Source of the DNA: a phage | Strand: one strand, 5' to 3' | Sequence record: PZ154897.1 | Length of the DNA: 64,000 nt | In this document: one piece after another, positions 22,061-43,655 of the stretch | Numbering within the stretch: position 1 is the stretch's first letter | Layout: every line of letters starts with the position of its first letter | Translations under genes and position numbers: made by a program | Notes under the pieces: generated by a model | Database searches by the model: none | The model's input: the letters and a program-made list of their open reading frames with translations, nothing else | Told to the model about the DNA's origin: nothing

Positions 22061-22297
22061 TTAACCACCTATTGCTGTAGGCGTAAACATTGCAGCATTC
22101 TTAGTTTTCCAGTCAGCTGCATCAGAAACTACAGTAGAATATGCCGCCTTTTCAGAAGGAAAGGTCTGATAATGAGAATCTGCAATACGATGCTCGTTAG
22201 AATAAATTTCAAACGGAACAGAAACTTCCATACCTTTAACTTCTTTGCCTTCACCCGCTGGATGAGTAAAGGTCTTGATGTTAACGAAACCACCCAT
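22061..22297 (-). CDS. soc: small outer capsid protein Soc
   Basis: 78-aa ORF; VNIKTF and YQTFPSEKAAYSTV segments match T4 Soc as I recall it. Confidence 0.88.
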   Translation of the reverse strand: MGGFVNIKTFTHPAGEGKEVKGMEVSVPFEIYSNEHRIADSHYQTFPSEKAAYSTVVSDAADWKTKNAAMFTPTAIGG

Positions 22298-22506
22298 AAT
22301 AAACTCCTTTATTGTTTAATTACAGATGTATTTATATCAATCTTCAATGAAAACTTGTGCCAGGAATTCATGCTCATCTTGAATTTGTTTATATAAAGCC
22401 ATTACAGCATTTATGTTAGAGCTATCTACTTTAAGTTGATAAGCATACCACTCATATAAATTAATTAAAGCTTTTTGACGTCTAATAAATTCTTCTTTGG
22501 ATATTT

Positions 22507-36529: not shown

Positions 36530-37489
36530 TCACTTCCACTGCATTTCACATGCCAATTGAATGAAAAGATATGCTAAATGTAATTCAGTATTAGCCGCAA
36601 TTCCATGATACTGGTTATTTTCACCAACAATTTCATACATACGAATAATACTTTGCGGAGTTACGCGTGTATAGATTTCTTCGGCAAGTTTACCTACGAA
36701 CCACGAATAATCAGCCGCATATTTTGGTGCTAAAGCTCTGAGTTGTTTAACATCTTTATTTTTGAGAGACTCAAGAACATCATCAATAGCACCACGATCG
36801 TTAGTAACCAGTGATAAAATACCAGCATCCAAAACACCTTTAGATGAATAACTATCGAGCTCACCAATAGTTTTACGAAAATCAGGAAAATTCTTTTTAA
36901 CCAAAGCTGCTACAACTTTCATATCAGCTATAGCAATTCCTTCATGCTTACAGATTTCAGTCAATCGACGAATCATCTGCTTCATCATTTCAATTTTATC
37001 TTCATCGGTCGGTTGACCGAACGTAATAACTCGACAGCGTGACTGAAGTGGTTTAATAATACCATCAATATTGTTAGCAGTAATAATAATACTACAGTTT
37101 GAACTATAAGCTTCCATAAAGGAACGAAGATGTCGCTGAGACTCTGCTAACCCTGAACGGTCAAATTCATCAATAACGATTACTTTTTGACGACCATCAA
37201 ATGAAGCGGCGCTGGCAAAATTAGTCAAAGGACCACGAACGAAATCAATTTTACAATCTGACCCATTCACAAACATCATATCAGCATTTACATCATGACA
37301 CAATGCTTTTGCTACAGTTGTTTTACCTGTTCCTGGAGAAGGAGAATGAAGAATAATATGTGGAATCTTACCTTTACTTGTAATAGATTTAAAGGTTTCT
37401 TTATCAAAGGCGGGAAGAATACATTCATCGATAGTAGATGGACGATATTTCTGTTCAAGAATGTGTTCTTTTTCATTTATAGTAATCAT
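36530..37489 (-). CDS. 44: clamp loader ATPase (RFC-like AAA+)
   Basis: 319 codons from first ATG (ORF track starts at TTG); Walker [11 protein letters not shown]. Confidence 0.93.
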
Positions 37490-37523
37490 AATTTCCTCAT
37501 TCAAGTTTTAGTGTAAATTATAA

Positions 37524-37540: not shown

Positions 37541-38227
37541 TTAAAAATCGTGGGTAGAATCAGCTTCAAGAGCTACTACATAATTCGCATGTTCACCTTC
37601 AAATTTAGCAGCGCCTTGTTTACCTTTTGCCCAGAGAAGAAGTTTATAATTTCCTGGTTGCATTTTCATATTTGCCATATTGATAATGAAATTAAATGTA
37701 TTTTCACCATCATAATCACCAAGAGTCAAAGAATATTTAACACGGGTCAAAGCAGAATCTTCTACTTTGTTAAAACCGTTAATTACAATTTTACCTTCTT
37801 TTACTGTGATAGCAATTGTATCAATCTGCAGACCGCGAGATACACGCAACAGCTGTTGAAGGTCTTCAGCTTTAATTTCAGTAACAACAGATGCTACCGG
37901 GAATGGAATTGGTTTATTAGGAGCAACTACTGTACTCGGATCGGCTGCTGGCCAAAAAATTGTTGAGCGAGCATCAGCAATTTTAATATTACCATCTTCT
38001 GACTGGGAAATTTCTGCATCATCATTAACTAGAGACAGAATACCGAGAAAACCGTTCAAATCGTAAATCGCTACATCAAAATCAATAACGTCAGAAATAT
38101 TTGCTTCCGCATAAGTGGTACCATTAACCGCGCGAGTCATAATAAATTGACCGGATTTAAGCATAATACCGGAGTTAATAGTAGCGAAATTTTTCAAAAT
38201 ATTCAGCGTATCTTTAGACAGTTTCAT
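37541..38227 (-). CDS. 45: sliding clamp
   Basis: 228-aa ORF, T4 gp45 length; synteny. Confidence 0.93.
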   Translation of the reverse strand: MKLSKDTLNILKNFATINSGIMLKSGQFIMTRAVNGTTYAEANISDVIDFDVAIYDLNGFLGILSLVNDDAEISQSEDGNIKIADARSTIFWPAADPSTVVAPNKPIPFPVASVVTEIKAEDLQQLLRVSRGLQIDTIAITVKEGKIVINGFNKVEDSALTRVKYSLTLGDYDGENTFNFIINMANMKMQPGNYKLLLWAKGKQGAAKFEGEHANYVVALEADSTHDF

Positions 38228-38282
38228 GTAATTTCCTTCAATTCAAATGAGATTTAATTTTATAACTAATTTAATAAAGCAA

Positions 38283-38672
38283 TTAACGATTAAAATCAGC
38301 CGCAATTGTTTCCGCAACAAGTTGAGCAGCAACAATTAGACGTTCATCTGCATTACCGCAATATTCATCTTCAAGGCGTTCACCACATGAAGTCATAATA
38401 AATTTAGCACCGGCGTTTAGGGATTCTGTAGTATGTTTGCGCATTAGTTCAATCCATTTATTACTTACTTCACGATCGATAGCTTCATAATACGCATGAC
38501 GAGCAGGTGCAGATTTAATTTTGTTCTGAATAACTTCCATTGCGTTATCAGAAAGAGACAAAACCCATGCTCGACGAATTTTATTTTGGTTTTGTGGATT
38601 TGAATCAGAACGCACGTGTTTTGGCTGAATATCTTTTACATCAACAGTATAATTCACAGTAATTTTAGTCAT
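38283..38672 (-). CDS. rpbA: RNA polymerase binding protein RpbA
   Basis: 129-aa ORF, T4 RpbA length; between 46 and 45. Confidence 0.75.
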
Positions 38673-38681
38673 AATACACCT

Positions 38682-38873
38682 TTAGTCATAATAATCAGTA
38701 ACAGTCCAAGCTTCATTTCTGTTGGACATTATTTTCGTATATTCTGATTTAAATGCATTCTTAAGCATAGATTCAGTAACTATATGCTCTTCATTAGAAA
38801 AATTATTTCTCAGAATATATCGTTTTATTTCAGGAATAGTTAATAGATGCTGTCCAGTTGAATATTCTGCCAC
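38682..38873 (-). CDS. hypothetical protein (63 aa), 45.2 position
   Basis: ORF. Confidence 0.55.
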   Translation of the reverse strand: MAEYSTGQHLLTIPEIKRYILRNNFSNEEHIVTESMLKNAFKSEYTKIMSNRNEAWTVTDYYD

Positions 38874-38883
38874 AGTTCCTCCG

Positions 38884-38891
38884 TATAAATA
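38884..38891 (+). promoter_or_regulatory. T4 late-promoter box TATAAATA upstream of plus-strand HNH gene
   Basis: exact TATAAATA about 34 nt before the ATG at 38925, then AAGGA SD. Confidence 0.5.
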
Positions 38892-38924
38892 TGTTTATCA
38901 CTCGCTGTATCAAAAGGATATGTT

Positions 38925-39641
38925 ATGAATTATAAACTAATTTATGAAAAGTTAATCTCTAATGCTAAATCTCGAAAACTTGATTGCTATACTGAATCTC
39001 ATCACATTATACCACGCTGTTTAAACGGTAGTGATGATGCTTCAAACTTAGTAGATTTAACGCCAGAAGAGCACTATGTAGCTCATCAACTTTTAGTAAA
39101 AATTTATCCTTCTGAACCAAAATTAGTCTATGCTGCTAACATGATGACAGTTTCTACGAAATACGCTAAACGTAACAATAAAACTTTCGGCTGGATTCGT
39201 CGTAAACTCTGGGAAATAGAAAAGAATAAAGAGTTCTCCAAAGAGACACGAAAGAAAATGTCCGACGCAGTAGCTAATAAAGCAAGACTAACTTGTCCAC
39301 ATTGCGGTAAGTCTGGATTAAGCGGGAATATGAATCGATGGCATTTTGATAACTGCCCAAATCATCCCAATCCTAAAGTTAGACCGCCAATGTCTAAAGA
39401 ACACAGAAATAATATCTCAAACGGGCTTAAAGCAATCGTTCTTGAAGAAACATCCTGCGAATTCTGCGGAATGATAGGCAAGAAATGCGTTATCGCAGCG
39501 CATAGAAATTTCTGCAAGAAAAATCCAAATGGACGCAAGAAAACTGAAAAGACTGGTACTTGCGTCCATTGTGGTAAAGTTACCACTTTCGGAAATTTAT
39601 CAAGATGGCATAATGATAATTGTAAATATAAACCTAGCTAA
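38925..39641 (+). CDS. free-standing HNH homing endonuclease with C-terminal zinc-finger repeats
   Basis: ESHHIIPRCLNGSDDASNLVDLTPEEHYVAH HNH motif; repeated CxHCGK...RWHxDNC units; opposite strand to all neighbours. Confidence 0.8.
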   Translation: MNYKLIYEKLISNAKSRKLDCYTESHHIIPRCLNGSDDASNLVDLTPEEHYVAHQLLVKIYPSEPKLVYAANMMTVSTKYAKRNNKTFGWIRRKLWEIEKNKEFSKETRKKMSDAVANKARLTCPHCGKSGLSGNMNRWHFDNCPNHPNPKVRPPMSKEHRNNISNGLKAIVLEETSCEFCGMIGKKCVIAAHRNFCKKNPNGRKKTEKTGTCVHCGKVTTFGNLSRWHNDNCKYKPS

Positions 39642-41322
39642 TCTTAGCTAAACTAAATCTACCAACTTTTTCCATTTGAATGTGCTGACCATATTCCTGT
39701 GGGTCATGGTCTTTATGCGAAATTATGAAGAAGTTGGTATCCTTCAAACCATCTAAAATTTTAGCCACATTTTTAATACCTTCAGCATCAAATGCACCGT
39801 CATACACTTCATCAAGAAATAAACAACTTATTTTAACACCTGAAACTTTTTCAGCAATATCACGCCAAGTAAATAAAAGAGCAATATCAATTCGTGCTTT
39901 TTCACCTTGACTAAATGAAGCATAACTAAAATCTTCACGACCACGGGATTTAATTGTCTCATTAAATTCTTCATCTAATGTAAACACATAATCCGCTTCC
40001 ATTATTTTAAGATAATGGTTAATCTGCTTATTAAATAATGGAATGTACTTTTTAATAATAGCACCTTTAATACCAGAATCTTTGAGCATATCAGTCAAAA
40101 TTCCTCGGTGGTATTTTTCCATTACTAAATTAGTTTTTGTCTTAACAATTTTATCAAGTTCTTCTTGAAGCAGTGCTATTTCATCAGCATGGTCAATAAA
40201 CTCAGAAGATGCTTTTTCTATAGCCGCTTTAACCTTTTTAGCTTTATCTACCGTCGTGATTAGAGATTGCTTTTTATTGCGAATATCATTTGCCAACGTC
40301 TGTTGGGTTTTAATATTATCTCGGTATTCATCAACGAGAACTTTTAAATTATCACGATGTGTTGAAAGCTGTTCAAACGAATGCGTGCATTCAGAAACTT
40401 TATCTTTAATTTTAGAAACAACTTTATCACCGGAACTTAATTGTGACAAACAGGTTGGACATAATCCACCTTCGTGATACATATTAATGACTTTATTATA
40501 CGAGTCAATTTTTGATTTAATTAAAAATGCTTCTTGACCGATTTTATTAAATGCATCAGTCGGGTCTTCATCCAAAACAATATTAACTAATCTTTCATTA
40601 GCTTCTTCTATTTCCGATTTTAGCGTTCTAGCTTCTTTTGCCAAATCATCATACATATTCTGCAGACGAGTAAGGTTATCACCAGTTAATTTTTTCTGGC
40701 GTTCAACGTTATCATTATATATTTTAATTTGTTGGATAATACTATCTTTTTTAACATCAAGCACTTGGTTTTGTGAATTTAATTCACGTATTAGTGCTTT
40801 ATTAAGCTTATCCATTTCAGCTAATGTTCCTACCTCAAGCAGGTCTTCCACAAGCTTTCTTCGCGCAGGGGTCGACAAACCCATGAAAGGGGTATACCCT
40901 GCTGTACCAAGGACAACAATCTGCTTGAAACTGGCATATGACATTCCGATAAGCTGTTCAAATTCTGCTTGGAAATCTTTACTGCTGGCAGATTCATTAA
41001 GACGTGTACCGTTAACGGTGATTTCGAAAACGTTTGGTTTTTGTCCTCTTTTGATATAGTACTTTTTCTCATCATATTCCATCCACAGTTCAACTAAAAG
41101 TTCTTTCTTATTTGTGCTGTTTATTAATTGACCTTTCTTTACATCACGGAATGGCTTGCCAAAAAGCCCAAATGTGATGGCTTCTAACATAGTAGACTTA
41201 CCACCGCCATTTCGTCCAGTAATAAGAGTTTTTTGAACCTTATCTAATTGAATGTCAACTCCATTTTGACCAACTGACATTATATTTTTATATTTTACTC
41301 TATTAAGTTTAAATGATTTCAT
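39634..41322 (-). CDS. 46: recombination endonuclease subunit (Rad50/SbcC-like ATPase)
   Basis: 562-aa ORF; Walker A GRNGGGKST; coiled-coil middle; ABC signature near C-terminus. Confidence 0.93.
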   Translation of the reverse strand: MKSFKLNRVKYKNIMSVGQNGVDIQLDKVQKTLITGRNGGGKSTMLEAITFGLFGKPFRDVKKGQLINSTNKKELLVELWMEYDEKKYYIKRGQKPNVFEITVNGTRLNESASSKDFQAEFEQLIGMSYASFKQIVVLGTAGYTPFMGLSTPARRKLVEDLLEVGTLAEMDKLNKALIRELNSQNQVLDVKKDSIIQQIKIYNDNVERQKKLTGDNLTRLQNMYDDLAKEARTLKSEIEEANERLVNIVLDEDPTDAFNKIGQEAFLIKSKIDSYNKVINMYHEGGLCPTCLSQLSSGDKVVSKIKDKVSECTHSFEQLSTHRDNLKVLVDEYRDNIKTQQTLANDIRNKKQSLITTVDKAKKVKAAIEKASSEFIDHADEIALLQEELDKIVKTKTNLVMEKYHRGILTDMLKDSGIKGAIIKKYIPLFNKQINHYLKIMEADYVFTLDEEFNETIKSRGREDFSYASFSQGEKARIDIALLFTWRDIAEKVSGVKISCLFLDEVYDGAFDAEGIKNVAKILDGLKDTNFFIISHKDHDPQEYGQHIQMEKVGRFSLAKIS

Positions 41323-41337
41323 TTTGTATCCAATTGT

Positions 41338-42192
41338 TCACAATGAAGAAAATTCTTTAACTAAAGCCTGTAATGAAGCCTCTATTGGATATCCATTCTT
41401 AACTAACATTTTCCTAAACATCACATGTTTAGGACGATTATATGATATCCACAATTCATACAATTTATCTTTATTATCCCAATGATAGCCTTTTCGTCGA
41501 GATGCTATATGAGCTTTTCTAATCTCCGGATTTTTCCAACTAGCAGCTACTGAATTTGATATAGCTATTTTATATTCAGGTTTTGATAAAGCAGCGCGAA
41601 CAGCCCTTTGGTGTTTAATTTTATTTTCTTCGTTATTAAACCATTCCCTTGAAGCCATTGAAATTTTTTGTTTTGTTTTAAAATTATTTAATCTTTCTTT
41701 GTTATCTTTTCTATTTTTTGCTACTGAAAAATATTTTAATGCCCTTTCTCTAGCAGCATTTCTATTTTGCGGATTTGAATAATACTGTTGAAGCCTTTTT
41801 GATATTGTGTCACTTACATCTTGTTTTATAAAACTATATTCAGCAGCTATTAAATCAACTTCGGCTAAAGATAAATTTTTATATGTTTTTCCTGACATCA
41901 TTCTATTTAAAGCATTTAGCATTTTTCCATTTTTACCTTTTGCTAATAAGAAATGTGCTTTGAAATGATTGAAATGACTTAAATTAACTAAATTCCATGT
42001 AGATTTTAAATATTCAGGAAATATTGATTTAGGAAGCACGTGATGTGCTTCCGTTTTACCTGGAGTTTTAACAGTTGAATTCATAGAAATAAAATTAATG
42101 TAAGACTTGGCGTCTTCTTCGCTCAACACTAATTTTTCAACTAATTCCTTTATTAAAAATTCATCATTAATATCAAGTTTAAAATTCTTCAC
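41338..42192 (-). CDS. free-standing HNH homing endonuclease with NUMOD-like repeats
   Basis: TEAHHVLPKS...NLVNLSHFNHFKAH HNH motif; repeated basic helix units; GTG start with AAGGA SD. Confidence 0.7.
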   Translation of the reverse strand: MKNFKLDINDEFLIKELVEKLVLSEEDAKSYINFISMNSTVKTPGKTEAHHVLPKSIFPEYLKSTWNLVNLSHFNHFKAHFLLAKGKNGKMLNALNRMMSGKTYKNLSLAEVDLIAAEYSFIKQDVSDTISKRLQQYYSNPQNRNAARERALKYFSVAKNRKDNKERLNNFKTKQKISMASREWFNNEENKIKHQRAVRAALSKPEYKIAISNSVAASWKNPEIRKAHIASRRKGYHWDNKDKLYELWISYNRPKHVMFRKMLVKNGYPIEASLQALVKEFSSL

Positions 42193-42452
42193 AAAAGATT
42201 CCTTTTAATGTATCTTTTAGACCATTCTATCATATCATCATAATCTAAAAAGTATTCATCAAATTCAGCCATGCAAACAACACCTTGTGCTGCTTTTGAT
42301 GTGATATAAATTATTCCAACATATCTAGAATCTTCTTCGGTGTAATCAATATTTGCTATGAATTCATCGTTAATGTCAAATGTCGAAAACTTCACAGTAT
42401 GCATCCTTAATACAAGATACAGCCATATCTTGTAATGATTTAGGTGTGTCAT
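42189..42452 (-). CDS. hypothetical protein (about 87 aa, start uncertain)
   Basis: ORF overlapping next ORF by 77 nt. Confidence 0.45.
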   Translation of the reverse strand: MTHLNHYKIWLYLVLRMHTVKFSTFDINDEFIANIDYTEEDSRYVGIIYITSKAAQGVVCMAEFDEYFLDYDDMIEWSKRYIKRNLL

Positions 42453-42639
42453 TATCTAAAATGTTGAAGTTAAAAGATACAGCCCAGTCAGTGCAGACCG
42501 TGACCTTTTTAATACAATTATCTTCAACCTCTAACGGTTCAAACCAATATTCAATAATTTCTTTATGCCCAATATCATCTTTTACTTCACATTCAAAATG
42601 CTGACTCATCATAACATTTTTAAATTCATCAAAAGTCAT
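42376..42639 (-). CDS. hypothetical protein (87 aa)
   Basis: ORF; ATGA overlap with gene 47 stop. Confidence 0.5.
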   Translation of the reverse strand: MTFDEFKNVMMSQHFECEVKDDIGHKEIIEYWFEPLEVEDNCIKKVTVCTDWAVSFNFNILDNDTPKSLQDMAVSCIKDAYCEVFDI

Positions 42640-43655
42640 TGTGTTGCCTCTACATATAACTGATTTGCATATTGAATAAGTGCTTCGCGATCAGAATCAG
42701 TGATGTCTGGAATTGCATTAATGTATTCTTCCATCAACGTCTGAAGAGATTGAACTTCAACTTCTTCGCTATCATCTGACTCGACAGAGTTATCAATCTT
42801 TGACACAACTCGTAATGAATGCACAACTTTTTCTAGTTCAGATTCGAACTTCGTTAGATTTTTGTCTACCTCAGTTACTATAACACGCACTGATAGATTT
42901 GTAAAATCTTTATAGTCAATTTTTCCCTTAAATGGATACTGAATTCGACGATGCCAGGTAGTGTTGTTTGGAATAAATTCCATTCGTTCTGTTTCTGTAT
43001 CAAACATCCAGAACCCGCGAGGGTCATTCTCGTCACCTGCAGTTAGTGTCCATGGTGTCCCAATATATCTGACGTTAGCAGCCTCAGAGATAGTATGGAA
43101 GTGACCAGACCACACCTCTTTATAAGTCTTAAGGAAATCAGGTTCAAGACCGTGAGATTTCATTCCTTTATAAAAATAAAATCCATTCAACTCCCAGTGA
43201 CCAACACAAAAAGAAGCAGATGAAGTTTTGATGTGTTCAAGAATTTCACCAGTATTTTCTTCGCACATCCAAGGAATTAAATCAATCAAACATCCGTCAA
43301 AATCTACTGTAGTAGGCTTATCATATACTTTAACATTAGGATATTTAGCCAAAAGCTCAGTAGAGGCATTTGGATGCATTACATTTTTATAGTGGAGATC
43401 GTGATTTCCTACAATAGTATGTAATGTGATTCCAACGTCATCAAGCATTTGAACTATTTCGCGAGCAAACTCCATAGTTTTATGCGTGATCGCTTTTCGC
43501 ACATCAAAAATATCACCATATTGAATCCATACAGTAATTCCGTTTTTCTTAGAATATTCTATCGCTTGCTTAATTCCATCAATTTGAATACCGCGAATCC
43601 ACTCATCATCAGCTTTAACGCCTAAATGCCAATCACCTAAATTTAAAATTTTCAT
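42636..43655 (-). CDS. 47: recombination endonuclease subunit (Mre11/SbcD-like phosphoesterase)
   Basis: 339-aa ORF, T4 gp47 length; GDWH and GNHD phosphoesterase motifs. Confidence 0.93.
   Translation of the reverse strand: MKILNLGDWHLGVKADDEWIRGIQIDGIKQAIEYSKKNGITVWIQYGDIFDVRKAITHKTMEFAREIVQMLDDVGITLHTIVGNHDLHYKNVMHPNASTELLAKYPNVKVYDKPTTVDFDGCLIDLIPWMCEENTGEILEHIKTSSASFCVGHWELNGFYFYKGMKSHGLEPDFLKTYKEVWSGHFHTISEAANVRYIGTPWTLTAGDENDPRGFWMFDTETERMEFIPNNTTWHRRIQYPFKGKIDYKDFTNLSVRVIVTEVDKNLTKFESELEKVVHSLRVVSKIDNSVESDDSEEVEVQSLQTLMEEYINAIPDITDSDREALIQYANQLYVEATQ

Follow-up and report, generated by a model that had tools for sequence, protein, structure and literature searches.

Background

Free-standing homing endonuclease genes (HEGs) shape mosaicism and partial genetic isolation among the T-even phages, and to our knowledge only a handful of free-standing or phage HEGs have been studied: SegA-G, MobE and I-TevI-III. 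Here two genes of this kind, HEG1 and HEG2, are described at the two ends of recombination gene 46 in a 64,000-nucleotide stretch of phage DNA (record PZ154897.1; hereafter the window). This stretch, the early-gene region of a T4-like phage (Tequatrovirus), shares 98-99% identity with phages N2, SYGD1, Aplg8 and RB51.

The best-studied working model is MobE, a free-standing HNH nickase of T4 encoded between nrdA and nrdB. It nicks the adjoining conserved gene at a specific site; the flanks are co-converted, and polymorphisms distinguish the carrier and target alleles (PMC2790892). The T4 genes mobA, mobC, mobD and mobE are promoter-less and are translated from upstream messages (PMC2988022). 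mobB is grouped with endonuclease genes transcribed from promoters in the upstream non-coding region, middle or late being unspecified, and MobB activity is listed as not established in Table 1 of the same paper (PMC2988022). T4 HEGs are as a rule transcribed from late or middle promoters, and all of these genes except segD are co-oriented with their neighbours; segD has no identifiable promoter and is thought to be barely expressed (PMC2988022).

The gene 46 locus is best explained as a whole by two independent insertions of free-standing, T4 Mob-family HNH endonuclease genes at the ends of gene 46, with HEG1 as a late homing cassette and HEG2 as a promoter-less cassette, an explanation to which we give a probability of about 0.8. 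The three genes concerned are as follows.

38925-39641, plus strand: HEG1, 238 aa; Mob-like HNH endonuclease, opposite to the surrounding genes 44 through 47
39634-41322, minus strand: gene 46, Rad50/SbcC-like recombination nuclease subunit, 562 aa; Pfam SMC_N and AAA_23
41338-42192, minus strand: HEG2, 284 aa, GTG start; divergent Mob-like HNH endonuclease, intact in the window

HEG1 shares with T4 MobB the elements MNY..IY, TExHHIIPRC and NLV.LTPEEH..AH, the two proteins fall in the same PHROG, and both are encoded by free-standing genes in an early-gene region. At the C-terminus, however, MobB has repeats of its own (IENR1/NUMOD-like, by eye), where HEG1 has three unrelated Cys-Cys-His-Cys (CCHC) fingers, and mobB lies co-oriented with its neighbours between a-gt and a-gt.2, whereas HEG1 is antisense and occupies another insertion site. 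The gene 46 tract linked to HEG1 fits the co-conversion pattern of MobE, although MobE is promoter-less and needs upstream transcription, like HEG2 and unlike HEG1. HEG2 recalls mobC: a 165-nt stretch of HEG2 DNA is 75% identical to mobC, both genes are promoter-less and co-oriented with their neighbours, and the closest HEG2 relative outside its own cluster (P0123, 37% identity) sits in the mobC slot between nrdD and nrdG. HEG2 differs from MobC in its C-terminal region and in being inserted at the first codons of gene 46.

segD, like HEG1, is opposite to its surrounding genes, but it encodes a GIY-YIG enzyme and is promoter-less, whereas HEG1 has a conserved late promoter. As segD is the sole antisense HEG of T4 and lacks a promoter, the combination of antisense orientation with a late promoter is not represented in T4; it is a simple route to the late expression usual for T4 HEGs. 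I-TevI and I-TevIII have a late promoter just upstream of the endonuclease open reading frame (ORF) and are made late (PMC2988022), as is predicted for HEG1. They differ in being intron-borne and in having a hairpin that sequesters the ribosome-binding site and an operator that resembles the homing site, neither of which was found for HEG1.

HEG1 and HEG2 belong to the Mob family

An initial annotation of the window, made from the sequence and its ORFs, had described both genes as HNH homing endonuclease genes, and homology searches bore this out. HEG1 matched phrog_655 ('homing endonuclease') at 1.3e-68 and HEG2 matched the same family at 8.2e-45. In BLASTP, the N-terminal ~120 aa of HEG1, which include its nuclease domain, were 47% identical to T4 MobB (E 1e-29), and its HNH domain was 37% identical to T4 MobC (3e-22); HEG2 matched MobB (2e-8) and MobC (2e-7). 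Both proteins are thus homologous in sequence to MobA-E type proteins, and the HEG1 and HEG2 family profiles aligned with each other in hhalign at 97.8% probability (E 8e-13, 113 columns). The domains of HEG1 are given below.

38994-39086, plus strand: HNH motif of HEG1 (ESHHIIPRC...N41...H50...H54), in an HNH domain of about aa 1-95
39294-39356, 39456-39515 and 39561-39623, plus strand: three CCHC zinc-finger modules of HEG1, each a Cys-Cys-His-Cys unit

The HNH motif of HEG2, TEAHHVLPKS...NLVNLSHFNHFKAH, is encoded at nt 41953-42054 on the minus strand; this motif and that of HEG1 had both been noted from the letters and are present as described. Each protein has the general-base His in an HH pair, the structural Asn and the metal-binding His/Asn of the HNH catalytic motif. 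In HEG1, E24, H26, H27, N41, H50 and H54 are invariant across 33 aligned homologues, a sample from a family of ~2300 proteins. The HEG2 family is tiny (6 database clusters at E<=1e-5), and E48, H50, H51, N67, N70, H76 and H80 are invariant in 6 sequences. Nuclease activity is predicted for both proteins from these residues.

Searched against the PDB, the HEG1 family profile matched the McrA HNH motif (E 1e-3), a group II intron maturase (E 2e-3), Cas8-HNH and IscB, all four at E 1e-3 to 4e-2, and the HNH motif can be aligned with McrA and with the En domain of the group II intron. The HEG2 family profile gave nothing significant against the PDB, nor did single-sequence PDB searches with either protein. 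AlphaFold2 (AF2) models of HEG1 and HEG2 show a putative beta-beta-alpha unit at the HNH motif, and structure searches with these models were non-significant. In the HEG1 model, which is confident (pLDDT 88.8), this unit is followed by three beta-beta-alpha CCHC modules (pLDDT ~90).

The finger ligands of HEG1 are C124/C127/H140/C144, C178/C181/H193/C197 and C213/C216/H229/C233. Each unit places Cys-x2-Cys...His-x3-Cys on a beta-hairpin and helix, and zinc binding is predicted from this arrangement in the model. The ligands of the third finger are invariant in 33/33 aligned homologues, and in the full-length subfamily, which has three fingers, the consensus retains those of fingers 1 and 2. 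Foldseek returned zinc-finger arrays (CTCF, TRAF6, Cep104) as the best matches, none of them significant (E >= 0.026). Three zinc-finger-like CxxCGK...RWHxDNC repeats had been claimed in the initial annotation; there are indeed three CCHC units, but the RWHxDNC signature occurs in units 1 and 3 only. HEG1 aa 102-116 scored 13.2 bits against NUMOD3 (PF07460), under the 20.4 bits needed (E 0.089); NUMOD3 is present in many more distant HEG1 relatives. The NUMOD-like repeats ascribed to HEG2 were not upheld, as HEG2 has no Pfam NUMOD match even at E<=10; three loose S-x6-[WYF]-x-N-[PE]-[EQ]-x-[RK] units can be made out by eye only.

HEG1 is under purifying selection: in comparison with the copies of RB51, G4498, teqhad and fFiEco06, 15-20 synonymous differences were counted against 1-4 nonsynonymous ones. 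The GC content of HEG2 is 28.5%, against 33-35% in its neighbours.

HEG1 and HEG2 are sporadic insertions at fixed sites

Neither HEG1 nor HEG2 is present in T4, as the initial annotation had supposed; there 45.2 and 46 are separated by a 55-nt spacer, and the start of gene 46 overlaps with 46.1. In a phage collection holding ~500 close relatives, 59 records carry HEG1 and 71 carry HEG2 at >=95% identity, so that each gene occurs in ~12-14% of the close relatives. At gp46 loci from IMG/VR, HEG1 was missing from 30/31 and HEG2 from 31/31. All four possible states occur.

Neither gene: T4, L008-L011, L013
HEG1 only: G4498, teqhad, fFiEco06
HEG2 only: KMB23, Lutter, T2 (frameshifted in T2)
HEG1 and HEG2: this window, N2, SYGD1, RB51, RB68, Aplg8, G28

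Because both genes are missing in T4 and sporadic among close relatives, each time at a fixed site, they are insertions and not core genes. The rpbA-46-47 interval is accordingly polymorphic and not identical in all relatives. The earlier suggestion of lineage-specific insertions stands as far as sporadic insertion goes; the genes are not private to one lineage, since the HEG1 slot is occupied in several lineages and HEG2 is found in T2.

GenBank/RefSeq records of RB51, RB68 and T2 already annotate HEG1 and HEG2 as homing endonucleases. HEG1 corresponds to RB32ORF054w of RB32/RB51, and the RB51 record carries the note 'similar to mobB'. In Table 5 of Petrov et al. 2010, T2 has one 'other HNH' gene and RB51 has one mob-like and one other HNH gene (PMC2993671). 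HEG1 and HEG2 appear to be among the putative HEGs counted there (PMC2993671), a match that we infer because the table gives counts per phage and not loci. A literature search found no paper characterising HEG1 or HEG2, and none for RB32ORF054w. Both genes are uncharacterised yet already annotated Mob-type members, ordinary for T-even phages.

HEG1 homologues at 42-65% identity were found in Klebsiella phage Roth77, Erwinia phage COW86c, Dhakavirus MX01, the IMG/VR locus L021 and the metagenomic T4-like contigs L046-L048. All nine HEG1-family loci (9/9) have the gene in the same slot: it lies antisense, with 45.2 (or rpbA) on one side and gene 46, with which it converges, on the other. The nine include Tequatrovirus, Dhakavirus, Klebsiella and Erwinia phages and metagenomic contigs, and the slot is held in at least four phage lineages besides that of the window. 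Across lineages HEG1 shows 59-65% amino-acid identity, compared with 67-69% for gp46.

A 45% identical relative of HEG1 (P0035) was seen in another T4-like contig, at L050 3001-3729, antisense beside uvsX (RecA_N). Its middle region is of the NUMOD3 type, it shares the C-terminal CCHC finger with HEG1, and the late promoter box TATAAATA stands 52 nt upstream; the antisense, late-promoter design thus recurs at a second locus.

A probable late promoter precedes HEG1

HEG1 runs opposite to the whole surrounding operon, as first described, and is preceded by the following signals, of which the late box and the Shine-Dalgarno sequence were located exactly where the initial annotation had placed them.

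38884-38891, plus strand: late promoter box TATAAATA, an exact T4-type match, 33 nt before the HEG1 ATG
38892-38924, plus strand: HEG1 leader, TTATC-N-GTCGC-N-GTATCAAA, conserved across lineages (upstream-region alignment)
38914-38918, plus strand: Shine-Dalgarno sequence AAGGA, 6 nt before the ATG

Two copies of TATAAATA were found on both strands of the 64-kb window against 10.65 +/- 3.2 expected from shuffles, and because of this shortage the box before HEG1 is more than a chance occurrence. The second copy (22329-22336, minus strand) lies 31 nt upstream of a 78-aa ORF (22061-22297, minus strand) judged Soc-like by eye on comparison with T4 Soc. Among these early genes soc is a late one, and its late promoter is presumably this box. 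Both copies in the window thus stand 31-33 nt before an ORF start. Among the nine HEG1-family loci, with the window and RB51 counted, an exact TATAAATA lies 27-44 nt before the MNYxxIY start in 7/9, and the other two have box variants with one mismatch (TTAAATA, CATAAATA). The box is therefore placed upstream of the gene as in gp55-dependent late promoters. The late-promoter reading of the initial annotation was upheld by this depletion and conservation, which together give strong comparative support to a predicted late promoter for HEG1, with transcription starting at about 38897.

A scan for sigma-70 promoters and terminators over 38000-42800 gave counts at shuffle level and nothing specific to either HEG. 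A ribosome-binding-site hairpin of the kind known for I-TevI or Aeh1 mobE was rejected for HEG1: the folds of 38897-38960 and 38850-38960 had z-scores of -0.78 and -0.46, no better than shuffles. An operator resembling the homing site was likewise rejected, as the best promoter/leader 20-mer matched the T4 45.2/46 region at 14/20 positions, which was equalled by 55/100 shuffles.

The initial annotation had expected the plus-strand RNA to be antisense to the 45.2-rpbA region. The transcript would instead run rightward into convergent gene 46 and away from 45.2-rpbA, which is upstream of the promoter and divergent from it, so that the predicted antisense target is gene 46. The stop codons of HEG1 and gene 46 overlap by 8 nt (39634-39641), as had been noted. 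The scan gave no plus-strand terminator beyond HEG1 before a weak, terminator-like site at 40293-40306, about 650 nt inside gene 46. In MX01, COW86c and L048 a GC-rich hairpin is found at the HEG stop itself; at the equivalent place in the window (39635-39650), the two overlapping stop codons are spanned by a 7-bp AT-rich inverted repeat (TAGCTAA/TTAGCTA), perhaps a degenerate bidirectional terminator.

A diverged tract of gene 46 is inherited with HEG1

Sixteen Tequatrovirus loci were aligned from rpbA to 47. Divergence from the window was 0-5 per 100 nt almost everywhere, the exception being the last ~200 nt of gene 46.

39655-39852, minus strand: last ~70 codons of gene 46, at its 3' end; foreign haplotype inherited with HEG1 (co-conversion or hitch-hiking tract)

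In this tract the HEG1-less genomes were 19-27 per 100 nt from the window and the HEG1-carrying genomes 0-7. The 206-nt tract haplotype occurs at >=95% identity in 60 records, compared with 59 for HEG1 itself, and in the other ~935 records identity is <=90% throughout; linkage of the tract with HEG1 is essentially complete. No comparable diverged tract was found on the 45.2 side of HEG1 in the 16 loci. HEG1 is thus co-inherited with flanking DNA, for which the signal at HEG2 is weaker. In carriers of HEG1, gp46 ends in ...GRFSLAKIS, where T4 has ...GRFTVMV and the nearly universal form is ...GRFTVM[VE]. Within Tequatrovirus the tract holds 17-20 nonsynonymous and 14-15 synonymous changes.

The pattern was repeated independently in Dhakavirus-like phages. 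The HEG1 carriers L021 and MX01 are 15-34 per 100 nt apart from five HEG1-less relatives only in the last ~280 nt of gene 46; L023, one of the HEG1-less phages, is otherwise nearly identical outside the 3' tract of gene 46. The divergence is mostly synonymous here. The first codon of the tract is the same in the two genera and comes right after the ultra-conserved block SFSQGEKARIDIALLFTWRDIA, which contains the ABC signature region. No donor of the HEG1-linked tract was identified among the lineages sampled, all of which lie at a roughly equal distance from it (67-75%).

HEG2 has captured the start of gene 46

Neither TATAAATA nor a near-variant was found upstream of HEG2, and HEG2 looks like a promoter-less cassette that would be translated from the 47-46.2-46.1 message. 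Its insertion has left two related start sites.

42175-42192, minus strand: original gene 46 start (GTG overlapping the 46.1 stop; MKNFKL), identical to T4 and now the start of HEG2
41305-41322, minus strand: replacement gene 46 start (ATG AAA TCA TTT AAA CTT; MKSFKL), from the alignment of junctions with and without HEG2

The two sites form an imperfect direct repeat, and the Shine-Dalgarno sequence AAGGAA lies 6 nt upstream of the original start, as in T4. Gene 46 now begins ATGAAATCA..., compared with GTGAAGAAT... in T4; to judge from the junctions, the replacement start came with the HEG2 cassette. For the ~15 codons that follow the gene 46 start (41259-41303), close relatives have one of two haplotypes, which differ by 11 substitutions in 45 nt. 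All HEG2-carrying phages have the same haplotype, but it is also found in the HEG2-less T4 and L008, and the flank signal is for this reason weaker than that of HEG1.

The window, N2, KMB23 and Lutter have a full-length HEG2. Deletions have shifted its frame in T2 (2 nt) and RB51 (1 nt), and RB68 also has no full-length ORF. These frameshifts are the usual decay stage of an HEG, and the T2 and RB51 copies are pseudogenes.

The first 45 nt of HEG2 (42149-42193, MKNFKLDINDEFLIK) are 73% identical to the early 46.1 frame (42352-42396, VKFSTFDINDEFIAN), a hint that local sequence was used to assemble the 5' end of HEG2. At 42032-42052, within the part of HEG2 that encodes the HNH motif, there is a 9-bp GC-rich inverted repeat (GGAAGCACG...TGTGCTTCC); it is accompanied by a T-run on the plus strand, and its minus-strand tail is not U-rich. 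An internal terminator is known in T4 mobE (PMC2790892).

Discussion

On the explanation preferred here, the gp55-type promoter at 38884-38891 and its Shine-Dalgarno sequence would drive late expression of HEG1, giving a protein composed of a MobB-like HNH nuclease domain and three CCHC zinc-finger modules that are predicted to bind DNA. In a mixed infection with a HEG1-less relative, the enzyme would nick or cut the empty allele in or beside the 3' end of gene 46, and recombinational repair from the HEG1-carrying genome would then transfer the cassette along with the final ~200 nt of gene 46. This stretch would be too diverged for recombination within it, and its divergence would also make the carrier allele a poor target. 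HEG2 would be read from the 47-46.2-46.1 polycistronic messenger RNA without a promoter of its own; it uses the start that originally served gene 46, which is coupled to the stop of 46.1, and provides gene 46 with a new ATG. HEG2 is at its intact stage in the window and at a decaying one in T2 and RB51. The flank and selection pattern of HEG1 matches the MobE paradigm, and both cassettes may still be mobile. A stretch with 21-25% divergence gives crossovers no homology to use, so that linkage should be complete whatever the position of the cut, and the exact target cannot be read from the sequence.

Several observations weigh against this explanation. HEG1 falls under the gathering threshold of Pfam PF01844 (16.9 vs 21.4 bits, E 0.0071), although sub-threshold scores are common for Mob-type enzymes, and HEG2 has no Pfam HNH match. 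As Pfam is sub-threshold or silent and the fold searches were non-significant, assignment to the HNH group rests on the motif and on Mob homology rather than on a curated threshold. No residue rule separates the gp46 C-termini of HEG1-carrying and HEG1-less phages beyond the rewritten tail after ...KVGRF, and no target was pinpointed. The HEG1-less phages themselves carry two tract haplotypes, a T4-type and a T2-type, ~23% apart with many amino-acid changes (T4 L002, T2 L003, L011, L013), so the tract is mosaic for reasons that are not necessarily all due to HEG1; the two may record past visits by HEGs or represent resistant alleles. Finally, the functions proposed for HEG1 and HEG2 are predictions from the sequence.

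The same genes could be kept mainly as weapons between phages, HEG1 especially, damaging gene 46 of co-infecting relatives, as marker exclusion or interference, while their own spread is secondary. The gene between the two insertions is required for recombination-dependent replication, purifying selection acts on HEG1, and HEG1 has persisted at its slot in several lineages with a divergence close to that of gp46; exclusion mediated by HEGs also has precedents (PMC2988022, PMC11620839). The molecular mechanism would, however, be the same as in homing, which makes the two inseparable by sequence, and a presence in only 12-14% of close relatives is unlike that of a strongly beneficial gene. We regard a mainly exclusionary role as rather unlikely. 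A more doubtful proposal is that one or both genes are inactive, hitch-hiking relics and that the diverged gene 46 flanks arose through ordinary mosaic recombination or diversifying selection on gp46. The broken HEG2 copies of T2 and RB51/RB68, the two further haplotypes 23% apart in HEG1-less phages and the many amino-acid changes in the Tequatrovirus tract agree with it. Yet both ORFs of the window are full length and keep every invariant catalytic residue, the selection on HEG1 is purifying, the linkage of tract and HEG is complete in ~1000 records, and the pattern recurs in a second genus, where it is mostly synonymous.

It is very improbable that the late plus-strand transcript is itself the functional product, as an antisense RNA that silences gene 46 late, with the ORF secondary. 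Such a role would fit the overlapping stops and the distance to the first, weak plus-strand terminator. However, the hairpins at the HEG stop in MX01, COW86c and L048 mean that read-through is not conserved, HEG1 is conserved at the protein level, with synonymous changes far in excess of nonsynonymous ones, and the cassette is missing from most relatives. HEG1 could also be viewed as a natural 'zinc-finger nuclease', in which a Mob-type HNH nickase is steered by three CCHC fingers that match no Pfam family to the gene for gp46, the Rad50-like nuclease processing the breaks that homing needs, with the unterminated late transcript acting in addition as antisense RNA against gene 46. This composite picture is speculative, and we think it improbable.

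Two homing cassettes at gene 46 leave the general picture of T-even biology unchanged. What is added is the comparative case for the promoter, the slot and linked tract of HEG1 across lineages, and HEG2's takeover of the gene 46 start. At this locus an essential recombination gene has had its ends rewritten by HEG cargo. With its conserved late promoter, fixed slot, modular zinc-finger region and sharply bounded linked tract of ~200 nt, the 45.2/46 cassette is a good natural case for mapping the target site of a Mob-type enzyme. For annotation, divergence at both ends of gene 46 in carrier phages is HEG-associated, the 45.2 start and the T4 46/45.2 middle promoter are altered by the HEG1 insertion, and HEG2 of T2 and RB51 should be recorded as a pseudogene.

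Neighbouring genes and additional features

The remaining genes around the two cassettes, and one candidate promoter, are listed below.

36530-37504, minus strand: gene 44
37541-38227, minus strand: gene 45
38283-38672, minus strand: rpbA
38682-38873, minus strand: 45.2
42189-43655, minus strand: 46.1, 46.2 and 47
39409-39434, minus strand: candidate MotA-type middle promoter TGCTTTA-N13-TATTAT, antisense inside HEG1

The T4 46/45.2 spacer (locus L002 5248-5302) contains a textbook MotA-type middle promoter, ATGCTTTA-N11-TATAAT, which is missing from the window, where 38866-38925 is the corresponding interval. The candidate at 39409-39434, the sole such match in 38874-39900, may replace the T4 promoter deleted by the HEG1 insertion, a suggestion held with low confidence. 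With the insertion, the 45.2 start has changed from ATG (MEY...) in T4 to GTG (MAEY...).

The gene 46 neighbourhood is a hotspot for extra genes. In the 47/a-gt interval, teqhad (L040 7439-7917+) and Lutter (L043 5896-6519) have a further 624-bp gene, annotated as 'HNH endonuclease' in teqhad and as 'hypothetical protein' in Lutter. The window carries neither this gene nor the 888-bp ORF that lies between 45 and rpbA in N2 (L044 111-998).

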